A stretch of DNA of 5,906 nt from the NCBI GenBank assembly GCA_048939465.1, contig JBHLPL010000116.1, forward strand, positions 1 through 5,906, read 5' to 3'. Shown here one piece after another: positions 3 through 3,775 of this stretch. The notes beneath the pieces are model-generated. The model was not told where the DNA came from. It saw only the letters and a list, made by a program, of their open reading frames with translations, and ran no database searches. Origin of the DNA: Promethearchaeota archaeon. GTDB lineage: Archaea > Asgardarchaeota > Odinarchaeia > Odinarchaeales > JBHLKK01. Position 1 is the first letter of the stretch, and each line of letters starts with the position of its first letter. Both the position numbers and the translations under genes were made by a program.

Positions 3-251
3 GTGGGCTCGATCTTCGAAGCGCTAGGGTATCTCATACACAGAAGGCTCATAGACAAAGATTTTGTCTGTGATGTTATAGGCGAATCAACCATGATGAG
101 TTGGGAAAAGGTCAAACCGATGATAGAAGACGCTAGAGAACAGCTGGGTCGGCGAATATCGGGTGAATATCTCCCTGTATTCAAATGGTGGGAATACATC
201 TATAGCGAAGTGAAAAAAAGTTGTACTAGTTACCATACTAGTACACGGTGA
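3..251 (+). CDS. DUF4760-like hypothetical protein, C-terminal part (5' end outside the window)
   Basis: The frame is open from the window edge. IFEALGYLIHRRLIDKDFVCDVIG..WEKVKPMIEDAR...F.WWEYIY resembles the DUF4760 pattern (FE.lG.lv..glid.....W....p.I...R.....f..fe.l), judged from memory. The stop TGA (249-251) lies inside the terminal GTGAAC of an IS right end. Confidence 0.65.
   Translation: MGSIFEALGYLIHRRLIDKDFVCDVIGESTMMSWEKVKPMIEDAREQLGRRISGEYLPVFKWWEYIYSEVKKSCTSYHTSTR
213..245 (-). terminator. Perfect 9-bp hairpin followed by a U7 tract on the minus strand
   Basis: TGTACTAGT (222-230) and ACTAGTACA (237-245) form a perfect inverted repeat with a 6-nt loop. The + strand A7 at 213-219 reads as T7 two nt after the stem on the minus strand, directly downstream of the IS right end at 248. 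Confidence 0.5.
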
Positions 252-340
252 ACCGCTCCCAACTTCCGCAGGGAGCTTCCTGCTTCATTCATTCCCCGAC
301 GGGATATATCTGACAGGCTCTACGGACAGTTCCTGCCCTA
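248..340 (-). mobile_element. IS200/IS605-family right end with TnpB omegaRNA (HgcC/sotRNA-like) scaffold; orphan, no tnpB
   Basis: The minus strand reads GGGCAG-GAA-CTGTCC GTAGAG CCTGT...TCCC-GTCG-GGGA..TGAA GCAGG AAG CTCCC-N10-GGGAG CGGTTCAC, the typical architecture at tnpB 3' ends. Guide tetramer GAAG (279-276) and terminal TCAC (251-248) satisfy all three pairings of the IS608 G_R/C_R rule. One frame reads DLGQELSVEPV, like a TnpB C-terminal tail. No matching left end was found in 340-565. Confidence 0.8.
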
Positions 341-408
341 AATCTTTACGTTTGCGAACTGGTGAGTGTTACCTCGACTCAATTCCATATGCTTGTCTTG
401 AAAACAGG

Positions 409-416
409 TATTTAAG
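409..416 (-). promoter_or_regulatory. Possible archaeal TATA box (CTTAAATA) driving the minus-strand omegaRNA-like transcript
   Basis: It resembles the TTWAWATA consensus. A start about 25 nt downstream (~385) would give a transcript of ~150-170 nt ending at the 213-245 terminator. This rests on motif and position only. Confidence 0.3.
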
Positions 417-565
417 CTCCTCGCAATTCATATCCTCCCTCTCGGATTGAATCTCCTTGGGGAGAAAAAGATAAAGTTCCCTAATAATATCACTAGTAAA
501 GGAGTAATCTAAAATAGCTGAATGGAAAAGATAATTTCTAGGTGCACGTTCGGAGTTGAAATGCT

Positions 566-1561
566 TTGAGGAGAATAACTGCCGTTCAATATGGTTTGGG
601 ACCAATAGGTTGCATGATTGCCCGATTGGCCAGCAAAAGAGGAATTGAGATCATAGGGGGGATCGATATCGATAAGCAAAAGATAGGAAAGGATGTTGGT
701 CAAGTTATTGGAATAGATCCTCTTGGCGTAAGAGTCGCCAATAATGCAACAGAATTCTTATCAAAAAGGAAACCAGATATAGTCTACCTGACTACCGTAT
801 CCTGCCTTAAGGATCTTATGCCTCAGCTCGATCAATGCATTGATGCGGGCGCAAACGTAATTTCTACGGCAGAAGAACTCGTTTATCCGTACGCTCAACA
901 TCCGGAGTTGAGCATCAAAATAGATGAGAAGGCGAAAAAGAGACAAGTTACAGTATTGGGTACTGGAATAAACCCTGGCTTTCTTTTCGATACCTTCATC
1001 GTATCTATAGCTGGCCTCTGTGAGAGTATTAACAAGATCAAATGTATACGCGTACAAGATGCGGCAAAAAGAAGACTGTCTCTTCAAAGGAAAATTGGGG
1101 CGGGTCTTTCTAGGGAGGAATTTGAAACTCAGATTCTGAGCAAAAGGGGTCATGTTGGTTTTATTGAATCTATAAGAATGATCGCAGATTCCCTGAAGTG
1201 GAATGTGGAGAAAATCTCGCAGGAAATGGAACCAATAATGGCGGAAAGGAGTGTCAAGAGTAACTACATAGAGGTTGAATCCGGCAAAGTTGCTGGAATC
1301 AAACAGACAGCAAGGGCCCATGTAGATGGAGAAGAAAGGATAGTTCTTGAAATACAATTCTACATAGGAGCCGAGGACCCTCATGATTCCATAAGTATCG
1401 AGGGGTCACCTCCGATACAATTCCACAACAAGACAGGGATAGATGGCGATGTTGCGACAACCGCCCTGGCTGTAAATATGACATCAAAAGTCATTGAAGC
1501 ATCTCCAGGTCTAAAAACCATGCTTGATCTTCCACTTTCATCTGACATTCTCAAACTATGA
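566..1561 (+). CDS. NAD(P)-dependent amine dehydrogenase, 2,4-diaminopentanoate dehydrogenase (Ord)-like / DapB-like N-terminal Rossmann domain, 331 aa
   Basis: TTG start with GGAGTT at 552-557. It has a Rossmann GLGPIG, an acidic beta2 end (GIDID), VISTAEE (the catalytic Glu motif of native AmDHs), GTGINPGF and GHVGF. RVQDAAKRRLSLQRKIGAG differs from the canonical Ord RVND motif, so the substrate is uncertain. Confidence 0.85.
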   Translation: MRRITAVQYGLGPIGCMIARLASKRGIEIIGGIDIDKQKIGKDVGQVIGIDPLGVRVANNATEFLSKRKPDIVYLTTVSCLKDLMPQLDQCIDAGANVISTAEELVYPYAQHPELSIKIDEKAKKRQVTVLGTGINPGFLFDTFIVSIAGLCESINKIKCIRVQDAAKRRLSLQRKIGAGLSREEFETQILSKRGHVGFIESIRMIADSLKWNVEKISQEMEPIMAERSVKSNYIEVESGKVAGIKQTARAHVDGEERIVLEIQFYIGAEDPHDSISIEGSPPIQFHNKTGIDGDVATTALAVNMTSKVIEASPGLKTMLDLPLSSDILKL

Positions 1562-1585: not shown

Positions 1586-1646
1586 GTAAACTATCCCTCC
1601 TTGCGGAATGGGCCTGTAAACTACTCCTCCCTTCTGGAAGGAGCCT
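1586..1646 (-). repeat. Head-to-tail imperfect tandem duplication (30 + 31 bp) of the right-end hairpin plus TAGTTTAC
   Basis: On the + strand, 1586-1615 GTAAACTATCCCTCC-TTGCGGAATGGGCCT and 1616-1646 GTAAACTACTCCTCCCTTCTGGAAGGAGCCT match at 24 of 31 aligned positions. Both fold on the minus strand (GCAA and AGAA loops). Confidence 0.85.
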
Positions 1647-1760
1647 ATGACTATGCTAGACCTTGATTCCCTTGCGTGCTTTAGCCTCATCACACGCCAA
1701 ATCAGGGGCGGTTTACAGCGCCCCAGCCCGGCAATCCGCGTATGACGTCGGACTACGGAG
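1586..1760 (-). ncRNA. Putative TnpB omegaRNA scaffold
   Basis: The hairpin GGGGCG-CTGTAAAC-CGCCCC (1724-1705) has an 8-nt loop complementary to the terminal GTTTACAG (1621-1614), consistent with a pseudoknot. Further stems are TGATT/AATCA, GCGTG/CACGC and TCCG/CGGA. One frame reads GAVNRP*, resembling the TnpB C-terminal tails that overlap this scaffold type. The 5' boundary is uncertain. Confidence 0.65.
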
Positions 1761-1899
1761 TTTAACTTACCTACCTGCATCGGTTGTTAACCATTTCCAC
1801 ATAAGAGAGATGTGTGCCTTTAGATCTATTAGTACGTATGGCACAAACTTATCTAAGGATCCCTCAATTTACCTCCGTTCTTTCGGGCGGAGTCTCCTT

Positions 1900-1905
1900 G
1901 AGGTG
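1900..1905 (+). promoter_or_regulatory. Shine-Dalgarno GAGGTG of the aminotransferase, located within the element's left end
   Basis: A perfect archaeal-type SD 6 nt upstream of ATG 1912, at positions +7..+12 of the inferred left end. Confidence 0.75.
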
Positions 1906-1911
1906 GTTAGA

Positions 1912-3222
1912 ATGAAGAAATTTGAAGAATATGAGAATATGACTCCTACCTCCAAGAAATTGTACGAGAAGAGCAAGAAGTTGCTTCCGGGGGGCGTAAG
2001 TCACAACATACGGTTTTTCCGTCCCTACCCTTTCTTCACAAGCAAGGCGCAAGGAGCATACCTCTGGGATGAAGACGGGAATAAATACATTGACTTCTGG
2101 ATGGGTCATATGGCTTGTATTCTGGGCCACGCCCATCCTGCGGTAGTAAAGGCCATCAAAGAGATATTGCCCTCTGGGATACACTGGGGGACTGTCAACA
2201 AGATTGCACTAAGACTGGCCGAAAAGGTGAATGCTGTCGTACCATGCGCTGAAATGGTTAGGTTCTGTAATTCGGGCACCGAAGCCACAATGTATGCTAC
2301 CCGTATAGCGAGAGCTTTTACGGACAGAACTACTGTAATCAAAATGGAGGGAGGCTGGCACGGAGGAAATACCGACCTAATGATTGGTGTGGGTCCTCCG
2401 TACAACAAACCGGACACCGTGGGTCTTCCCTATAGAATCTCTGATTGTATCAAACTTGTTCCCTTCAATGATATCCCTAACAGTATGGAGGTTCTCAGAA
2501 GTGTTGGAGATAAACTGGCTTGTGTGATTGTTGAGCCGGTTTTGGGGGCAGGCGGCGTAATCCCTGCAGATAGAGAGTATCTCGGAATGCTTAGGGAAAT
2601 TACCAGAGACCTTGGAGCTCTTTTGATTTTTGATGAGGTGATAACTGGATTCAGGCTCAGCTTGGGTGGGGCTCAGCAACATTATGGGATTGTTCCCGAT
2701 ATGGCAACCCTAGGAAAAATACTCGGTGGAGGTGCTCCGATAGGCGCCGTAGTAGGAAAGAAAGAGATTATGGAGATGGCGGCTCCCGTTGAAAGAGAAG
2801 ACAATAAGGTTTGGATTGGCGGTGGAACCTTCTCCATGAACCCTCTTACAATGTCTGCTGGTCTTGCTACTTTAGAGTTTCTGCAAGGTAATCCAAATAT
2901 CTACTACAGAATCGAAAAGCTGGGAGAAGAAGTTCGGCAGGAATTGGACAATATCTTTGTCAAATATGGCGTGGTGGCTAAGACAAGCGGTATCAAGTCT
3001 TTGTTCGCGATACACTTTCTAAAGAGACTTATAGAACTCAGAAATCCTCGTCAGTATCTAGGGTTCGTAGATCGGGAAAAAGAAGCAGAATATTATCTCC
3101 GCCTTTTGAAACACGGGGTTTTCTTTCTGCCGGGACACAGTGGATCGATTTCCTGTGCACACTCTGAAGAGGAGATTGAAAGATTGCTGGAGGCAACTAA
3201 AGAGGTGGCAAAAACAACTTAA
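1912..3222 (+). CDS. Class III PLP-dependent aminotransferase, glutamate-1-semialdehyde 2,1-aminomutase (HemL)-like, 436 aa
   Basis: Motifs are GAYLWDEDGNKYIDF, ILGHAHP, RFCNSGTEAT, IVEPV, LIFDEVITGFR, TLGKILGGG (PLP-binding Lys269, codon 2716-2718) and GTFSMNPL. The start is set at 1912 by the SD and by the fact that homology begins there; the 1663-1911 extension is non-coding. The divergent motifs (MGHMA, GGWHGG) make true HemL function uncertain. Confidence 0.88.
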   Translation: MKKFEEYENMTPTSKKLYEKSKKLLPGGVSHNIRFFRPYPFFTSKAQGAYLWDEDGNKYIDFWMGHMACILGHAHPAVVKAIKEILPSGIHWGTVNKIALRLAEKVNAVVPCAEMVRFCNSGTEATMYATRIARAFTDRTTVIKMEGGWHGGNTDLMIGVGPPYNKPDTVGLPYRISDCIKLVPFNDIPNSMEVLRSVGDKLACVIVEPVLGAGGVIPADREYLGMLREITRDLGALLIFDEVITGFRLSLGGAQQHYGIVPDMATLGKILGGGAPIGAVVGKKEIMEMAAPVEREDNKVWIGGGTFSMNPLTMSAGLATLEFLQGNPNIYYRIEKLGEEVRQELDNIFVKYGVVAKTSGIKSLFAIHFLKRLIELRNPRQYLGFVDREKEAEYYLRLLKHGVFFLPGHSGSISCAHSEEEIERLLEATKEVAKTT

Positions 3223-3247: not shown

Positions 3248-3619
3248 CTAGATCCACATACTCGCTTCTTCGGCGGTTCTGGACAGCTTCCAGAAGTATT
3301 CTCTGTCTTCGCTAACAACTAGCATGATTTCATTAGTTAATCTAACTGGAAAAACATAAAGTCTTTTGAAGTAGTGCTTGAATGCCATCATAATTGTGGG
3401 ACGTGCAGACGGATCCAAAATAACCTTCCTCAAATTCCTGTTCTCAACATACTGGTTAACTAACTGTTCCGCCTCTCCCCTATCGATCCTGTATTCTGTT
3501 GGATTGTTCCTTAGCTCTCTAACCTTTCTATCCCACTTGACGAGGATATCTCTGAAGATTCTTCCAACTCTCAGCTTCTGTAACAACTGTTGCTCAGAAT
3601 CTATCGAAATTGTCTCCAA
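3248..3619 (-). CDS. Hypothetical protein (~123 aa; likely TTG start at 3619, open frame extends to 3691)
   Basis: It fills the gap between the convergent aminotransferase stop (25-bp gap) and the divergent TPR gene, and has a charged, protein-like composition. GAGGAGG directly precedes TTG, and a BRE/TATA-like motif lies upstream. No family was recognised. Confidence 0.65.
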   Translation of the reverse strand: METISIDSEQQLLQKLRVGRIFRDILVKWDRKVRELRNNPTEYRIDRGEAEQLVNQYVENRNLRKVILDPSARPTIMMAFKHYFKRLYVFPVRLTNEIMLVVSEDREYFWKLSRTAEEASMWI

Positions 3620-3652
3620 CCTCCTCGCGCTTATTATTAAGACTATGTTCAG

Positions 3653-3665
3653 CCTTATAATCTTT
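3653..3665 (-). promoter_or_regulatory. Probable archaeal BRE-TATA (AAAGA-TTATAA-GG) for the hypothetical gene
   Basis: A purine run followed by TTATAA, about 35 nt upstream of TTG 3619. Confidence 0.4.
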
Positions 3666-3775
3666 ATGGTTGATAGAGATGAAATAATCAATTATGGTAA
3701 ATTCCAAACAGTTCTTATGAACCGAAATGGTTATTTTGCAACTTCCTGATAAAGAAATCAAGGTGAAACTATCAT

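Follow-up and report, generated by a model that had tools for sequence, protein, structure and literature searches.

We found that small, gene-less mobile elements in the genome of an Asgard archaeon supply the stop codons of the genes at whose ends they sit. The right ends of these elements carry the triplet T-R-A, which falls in frame with nearly all of the long open reading frames (ORFs) that enter them from upstream, and which at most of the insertion sites compared lies exactly where the uninterrupted gene has its native stop. At some sites, the left end of the same element precedes the start codon of the next gene with a motif that probably acts as its ribosome-binding site.

The window analysed here is the entire 5,906-bp contig C59 of a 1.96-Mb genome (152 contigs, 43% G+C). 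This genome is denoted G000, its two sister genomes G001 and G002, and contigs are given by their C numbers. Genes were approximated by long ORFs (at least 100 codons), not by a gene caller, and split genes are reported for this genome. The organism occurs in mangrove or sediment habitats, and the public runs that contain it include no RNA run.

A mobile element supplies the stop codon of a DUF4760 gene

The ORF at the left edge of the window (Table 1) is, judged by its Pfam match and its orthologs, a real DUF4760 gene. The fragment present in the window scores 20.7 bits on PF15956 (cut-off 25), and the full-length ortholog of a sister genome (174 aa) scores 44.1 bits against the same cut-off. 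Bases 243-253 read ACACGGTGAAC, and the ORF terminates with ACA CGG TGA. A genome search with bases 240-420 as the query returned about 17 copies, every one starting at query base 9, which is window position 248. At this boundary, at least 13 aligned genomic copies start with GTGAAC, while their upstream flanks are unrelated. The sequence common to this family (family A) is about 223 bp long and ends in ...GGAGAAGAAG, beyond which lie ATAAA-like flanks. Base 248 and the stop codon of the DUF4760 gene are element DNA, with GTGA (248-251) being the first four bases of the repeat. A preliminary description of the window had read the frame as ending CG/G TGA on a right-end GTGA, which both the ORF and the repeat boundary bear out, and had noted that the TTAC end of the other element reads GTAA, as it does in the second element, which starts with GTAAAC at 1616.

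Table 1. Coordinates of genes, elements and element parts in the window
Feature	Position	Strand	Evidence or remark
DUF4760-family gene, 3' part, cut by contig end	3..251	+	Stop TGA 249-251; last sense codon CGG 246-248
Family A mini-element (element A), 223 bp, gene-less IS200/IS605 derivative of PATE type	248..470	-	About 17 copies, full-length or partial, sharing sharp boundaries
Right-end terminus GTTCAC (+ strand GTGAAC), cleavage motif containing the stop	248..253	-	Terminus consensus
Right-end subterminal hairpin, 7-8 nt from terminus	256..275	-	Fold and stem comparison
A/T-rich TATTTAAG box, left-end region, many families	409..416		Conserved in 82 left-end matches
Left end: hairpin (partly decayed in the window copy) and 19-nt spacer ending ...GGGGAGAAAAAG on the + strand	427..470	-	Copy alignments and folds
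Retained target pentamer ATAAA (top strand TTTAT)	471..475	+	Flank comparison
2,4-Diaminopentanoate dehydrogenase-like gene	566..1561	+	Start 95 nt past element A, away from the junction
Extra 30-nt family B right-end hairpin copy (GTAAAC and stem-loop)	1586..1615	-	Tandem, directly before element B
Family B mini-element (element B), about 296 bp	1616..1911	-	Right end GTAAAC on + strand; left end with GAGGTG adjoins ATG 1912
Class III aminotransferase gene	1912..3222	+	Element B target retained as ATGAA 1912-1916

The preliminary description had also considered that the insertion might have truncated the gene well upstream of its native stop. Element-free DUF4760 paralogs end 9-12 residues past a conserved EY(I/L)Y.EV(K/R)(K/R) motif, and the window protein ends 10 residues past it. 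Because its C-terminal length past the motif lies within the paralog range, the gene is not truncated.

An insertion at the same site is present in both sister genomes and in one metagenome contig (82% protein identity), and the element's TGA provides the stop in all carriers, as CGG TGA in the window and as CAG TGA in the three relatives. Since the insertion is common to three relatives, it is old. In silico removal of 248-470, which joins base 247 to base 471, restores ACA CGA TAA in frame, and the corresponding removal in the three relatives restores CAA TAA; we infer that the TAA of the ATAAA at 471-475 is the native DUF4760 stop. A search for an empty allele of this site in both sister genomes and the single related metagenome contig gave none, and four metagenome runs yielded no contig joining 247 to 471. 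For the window copy, the conclusion that the stop kept its position therefore rests on the reconstruction together with the C-terminal lengths of the paralogs.

The C-terminal tail of the DUF4760 gene differs among relatives: in metagenome contigs of related organisms, the match to the gene extends to about base 220 and then gives way to another tail (AGAACAAAGACTAC...). When orthologous copies are compared between lineages, the right-end 83 nt of element A (248-330) show 89-92% identity, compared with 89-93% for the adjoining coding DNA, 70-83% for the left end and 48-76% for the downstream spacer (471-565). These identities suggest that the right-end (guide-RNA scaffold) part of the element may be under constraint. 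The TATTTAAG box of the left-end region is a possible archaeal TATA box of putative function.

Identity of the mini-elements

From their sequence features, we identify the elements as non-autonomous derivatives of the IS200/IS605 family, of the kind known as PATEs, with the top strand corresponding to the minus strand of the window and the right end lying at 248. Families A and B contain no ORF and have no terminal inverted repeats. Alignment of about 30 copies shows imperfect hairpins, on the same strand, near both ends: the right-end hairpin lies 7-8 nt from its terminus, and the left-end hairpin about 19 nt from its own. The right-end hairpin has an uninterrupted stem in 44 of 56 copies, and its fifth stem pair varies in a compensatory manner, being T-A, A-T, C-G or G-C in different copies.

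Using iterated profile searches of the genome, we counted 56 right ends and 82 left ends belonging to several families. The right-end census is partial, as many left ends have no matched right end, and a simple motif search recovered right ends for only 5 of 33 unmatched left ends. Most of the 56 right ends terminate in GTGAAC or GTAAAC (top strand GTTCAC/GTTTAC). Element sizes range from 47 to 350 bp. The smallest, single-hairpin forms of 46-47 nt consist of a right tip, one hairpin and a left tip (C73:16377-16331, C69:17467-17421, C23:14124-14169 and others), and because two of them are absent from sister genomes, such forms seem to move or to be lost precisely.

The genome contains one TnpA gene (PF01797, 126.7 bits; C105:1180-1545), located beside a TnpB gene, and the copy that carries both (C105:997-2845) is bounded by the same end types as the mini-elements. 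TnpB-only copies share these ends as well, with the TnpB genes at C2:26975-27172 and C55:5867-6043 preceding family A and family B right ends, respectively. The right-end 99 bases of the window element A match the right end of the TnpB-bearing copy at G000 C2:25974-27281. The assignment to IS200/IS605 (PATE) thereby draws on the hairpins, the target, the right-end motif, a TnpA with matching ends and derivation from TnpB copies.

Two other classes of repeat were rejected. REP or REPIN sequences served by a RAYT transposase do not fit elements of 47-350 bp with GTRAAC termini and both hairpins in direct orientation, in a genome whose sole Y1 gene lies within an IS605-type unit next to tnpB. A classical MITE does not fit elements that lack inverted termini and that leave no target duplication when compared with empty sites.

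Upstream genes stop in the frame of the element

We measured the open stretch upstream of each right end in all three frames and discarded every ORF that is an antisense shadow of a longer one on the opposite strand. Genome-wide, the T-R-A of the element is the stop codon for 19 of the 20 long, non-shadow ORFs that enter a right end (binomial p = 1.2e-8 versus 1/3), including the window's DUF4760 gene, which is cut by the contig end. In the strict set, 9 long ORFs reach the junction at the 56 confident right ends and all 9 stop on T-R-A, while a relaxed search adds 10 ORFs in the stop frame and a single one in another frame. This exception (C23:7624) is a 232-codon ORF that ends five codons inside the element, at a hairpin TAG. 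An 84-codon ORF (C84:8667) is a possible second exception, and when it is counted as one, the strict set becomes 9/10 (p = 3.6e-4). In the two sister genomes, all six long ORFs at right ends use the element stop.

The in-frame excess does not come from stops being present in all frames, because within the elements the two remaining frames run for 10-100 codons without a stop. One right-end family has a second stop, the hairpin TAG, in another frame, as at C23:7624. Among the candidates dropped as antisense shadows of longer opposite-strand genes were ORFs of 66-86 codons in the other two frames (C137:8824, C137:14539 and C2:27281) and, likewise, the frame-0 ORFs C137:2852 and C125:2775.

Pfam domains were found in 9 of 10 tested upstream ORFs: citrate synthase/CoA-ligase domains, luciferase-like monooxygenase, a CxxCxxCC domain protein, NDK, RadA, ferredoxin, PTH2, Roadblock and AsnC. 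The RadA and PTH2 proteins end exactly on the final position of the domain model. The stop has been lost in about 7 unused right ends versus 0 of the 19 used ones, a comparison of small numbers on which no conclusion here rests.

Native stops at empty sites

Ten insertion sites were compared with their empty counterparts among this genome and its sister genomes, in both directions. At eight of the ten, the native N-TGA, N-TAA or N-TAG is located exactly where the element's G-TGA, G-TAA or G-TAG sits, in agreement with the earlier proposal that a stop is kept at the same position after insertion. The filled ACG TAA of the 47-nt form at C69:17467 corresponds to the empty ACA TAA and ACA TGA; AAG TAA at C96:1008 to AGA TGA; ATG TAA at C38:1878 to ATG TAA and ATT TGA; CTG TAG at C23:14124 to CTC TGA and CTT TGA; AGG TAA at C77:32210 to GGA TAG and AAA TAG; GGG TAA at G001 C20:16466 to GGA TGA; and TTG TAA to TTA TGA at both G002 C57:1876 and G002 C58:8075. 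The empty site of C66:3252 reads GAG TG/A TGA, a one-base stop/start overlap in which the native TGA straddles the cut (slash), and the element's TAA comes one codon later. The comparison at C25:4656 is ambiguous, as the gene in the sister genome extends 4-5 codons further.

Across these ten filled/empty comparisons, the insertions are precise and lack target duplications, and their presence or absence varies between sister genomes; the C38 site has 4 unexplained extra bases. At one gene end, two different families were found, a family B-like element at G000 C69:28752 and a family A element at G001 C7:13372 in the sister genome. This implies either two insertions at a hot spot or the replacement of one element by the other.

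Target motifs and the downstream junction

Of the 5-mers that flank the left ends, 24 are ATAAA and 20 are ATGAA, and the remainder are mostly one-base variants. The top-strand target is accordingly TTTAT or TTCAT, and the right-end termini on that strand are TTCAC or TTTAC. On the gene strand, the target A-T-R-A-A and the right end G-T-R-A-A-C consequently both have a stop at positions 2-4. In the IS200/IS605 family, the target is read through guide-target pairing by bases 5' of the hairpin. When we compared the base just 5' of the left hairpin with the third base of the target, 23 copies were concordant as T/A, 17 were concordant as C/G and 13 were discordant, a covariation consistent with such pairing.

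In about half of the family B copies, the left end directly precedes the start codon, ATG or in one case GTG, of an ORF of 150-800 codons; the window aminotransferase gene at 1912 is among these cases. The family B left end reads ...GAGGTGGTTTAG, then ATGAA. Host genes have motifs of the GGAGG/GAGGT type that mostly begin between -13 and -10. The GAGGTG of the left end falls at the same distance, and the left-end GAGGTG/GGAG probably works as a ribosome-binding site. At C66:3252-3549 and C139:3766-4065 of G000, one element provides the upstream stop and also precedes the downstream ATG.

The interpretation given in the preliminary description is supported, and neither of the outcomes that it named as refuting was observed. 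It had expected an ATGA-type target, as in the 20 copies flanked by ATGAA; the target of the window copy is ATAAA, a TAA stop without an ATG. Its proposal that both junctions could be repaired is borne out by cases such as the two elements just named; at the window element A, the downstream gene begins 95 nt away.

The genome contains about 13,100 ATRAA sites, of which about 3,160 are outside long ORFs; of these, 130 (4%) are stops and 147 are starts, in a class that also contains promoters and small genes. About 19 of 85 elements (about 22%) sit on stop codons, compared with about 4% of the available sites (p about 1e-9).

Mechanism and alternative explanations

The element boundaries, the target motif, the frame enrichment and the native stops at empty sites lead us to the following mechanism. 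A Y1 transposase, presumably TnpA, would have inserted element A just 3' of TTTAT on the minus strand. The right-end motif and the target are nearly alike, and both carry a stop in their complement. Where the T-R-A of the target is a gene's stop codon, insertion would push this native stop to the left-end side and the T-R-A of the element would replace it in frame, the sole change being a wobble base of the last sense codon that becomes G, which would usually be silent. Where the target contains the ATG of the next gene, the left end would set its GAGGTG/GGAG motif at the host's usual distance before that start codon. Such insertions would be nearly harmless and persist, while those that break or extend genes would be lost, leaving an excess of in-frame stops. 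Overall, TnpA-type insertion with like cleavage motifs, followed by selection against harmful insertions, is the best explanation of the data and in our judgement a highly probable one, with selection rather than insertion bias the likely source of the enrichment, although standing copies by themselves are compatible with both.

The preliminary description had cautioned that a frame match arises by chance one time in three, and chance could indeed not be dismissed from a single case; yet 19 ORFs are in frame against 1 (perhaps 2) here (p about 1e-8), the two sister genomes add 6 against 0, and these counts already refute it and leave it virtually no probability. That the stops arose by mutation after insertion is hardly more credible and is likewise already refuted, as the GTGAAC/GTAAAC consensus is present whatever adjoins the right end, including divergent genes and non-coding DNA. 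A preference of the transposase, either for a longer target or for single-stranded DNA exposed at gene ends, might produce the excess at stops and starts without selection. The occupancy of stop codons, about 5-fold that predicted from ATRAA sites outside long ORFs, could reflect such a preference, and the different families at one site (G000 C69:28752 and G001 C7:13372) hint at hot spots. However, no bases are conserved upstream of the right ends or downstream of the pentamer, known members of the family such as IS608 and ISDra2 read only 4-5 target bases, and the 'intergenic' class from which the prediction was made includes promoters and small genes, where insertion would be harmful. We consider an insertion preference unlikely.

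It is also possible, if somewhat doubtful, that selection acting on the element made its ends a portable adaptor for gene junctions rather than a by-product of transposase chemistry. The right-end stop and the left-end GGAG/GAGGTG at host distance co-occur in several families, down to the 47-nt forms, and the right-end 83 nt are conserved like coding DNA in orthologous copies. On the other side, the two cleavage motifs resemble each other throughout the family, as transposition requires, and the purine-rich spacers might have a role for the transposase or for the hairpin. We tentatively suggest, as a conjecture, that mini-elements could have evolved as self-contained junction adaptors, comprising a stop, a hairpin, a possible promoter and a ribosome-binding site, that colonise operon stop/start overlaps without polar damage. 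If so, they would uncouple the translation of such gene pairs, giving each gene its own initiation, and would represent operon spacers that Asgard archaea tolerate and possibly use for regulation.

Returning to insertion followed by selection, junction-compatible ends may explain how elements sit harmlessly at gene junctions, an arrangement that recurs at some 20 genes of this genome. They offer a simple, testable reason for the presence of about 100 copies of one transposon family in a compact 2-Mb archaeal genome, where elements lie exactly on stop and start codons, even in essential operons, and the genes are not destroyed. For annotation, the implication is that gene ends, ribosome-binding sites and operon spacers can be mobile DNA in such genomes, and that the last codon and stop of many genes may be younger than the gene itself. 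The idea can be tested across IS200/IS605 and TnpB elements because cleavage motifs (TAMs) are known for many members.

Relation to known systems

IS608 and ISDra2 reportedly insert 3' of a 4-5 nt target that lies next to the left end, and their right end is said to finish in a related motif, both motifs being read by bases 5' of the hairpins. The elements described here share the target-adjacent left end and the related right-end motif. The IS608 pair TTAC/TCAA reads GTAA/TTGA on the other strand, and within the scope of our searches we know of no description of IS608 or ISDra2 motifs serving as host stop codons.

PATEs were described as non-autonomous IS200/IS605 derivatives in Haloquadratum walsbyi and other haloarchaea and, according to the searched parts of that report, are TnpB-type elements without their core, down to terminal-only forms of 52 bp (Dyall-Smith et al. 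2011, PMC3119063). Like the PATEs of those parts, the present elements are gene-less, have hairpins near both ends, lack inverted terminal repeats and cause no target duplication, the smallest here being 47 nt; unlike PATEs, they reside in an Asgard archaeon. The searched parts of PMC3119063 do not report PATE ends that replace the stops or ribosome-binding sites of flanking genes.

The closest precedent is the provision of stops by GTAG-tagged REPs, which are mobilised by RAYT tyrosine transposases and whose termini are often the source of the TAG that ends a flanking ORF (Di Nocera et al. 2013, PMC3733652). In both systems, the terminal tetranucleotide of a Y1-served hairpin element acts as a stop. 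Unlike the elements here, REPs are bacterial, 20-40 bp long and often arranged in inverted pairs, with a single-copy domesticated transposase, and PMC3733652 presents no empty-site proof, frame statistics or ribosome-binding site at the other end. IStrons, which combine a group I intron with an IS605/IS607 element (bioRxiv 10.1101/2023.11.20.567912), also lower the cost of landing in or beside genes; whereas their transcript is repaired by RNA splicing, here nothing is removed and the element ends replace the displaced signals.

Our literature searches returned no description of IS200/IS605 ends that replace both a stop and a ribosome-binding site, no direct description of stop or start codon repair by IS605 elements, and none with empty-site evidence. 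The element is of a known kind, a PATE, and its junction-compatible ends are a modestly new and well-supported property.

Other features of the window

A repeat finder run on the window did not link its two elements to each other because they belong to different families, and an Rfam scan of the window gave no match at E <= 1. Between the genes for the aminotransferase and a TPR protein, a 147-aa ORF without a Pfam match lies on the minus strand (3248-3691). The 30-nt copy of a family B right-end hairpin at 1586-1615 could be a tandem duplication of the end of element B or the remnant of a second element.
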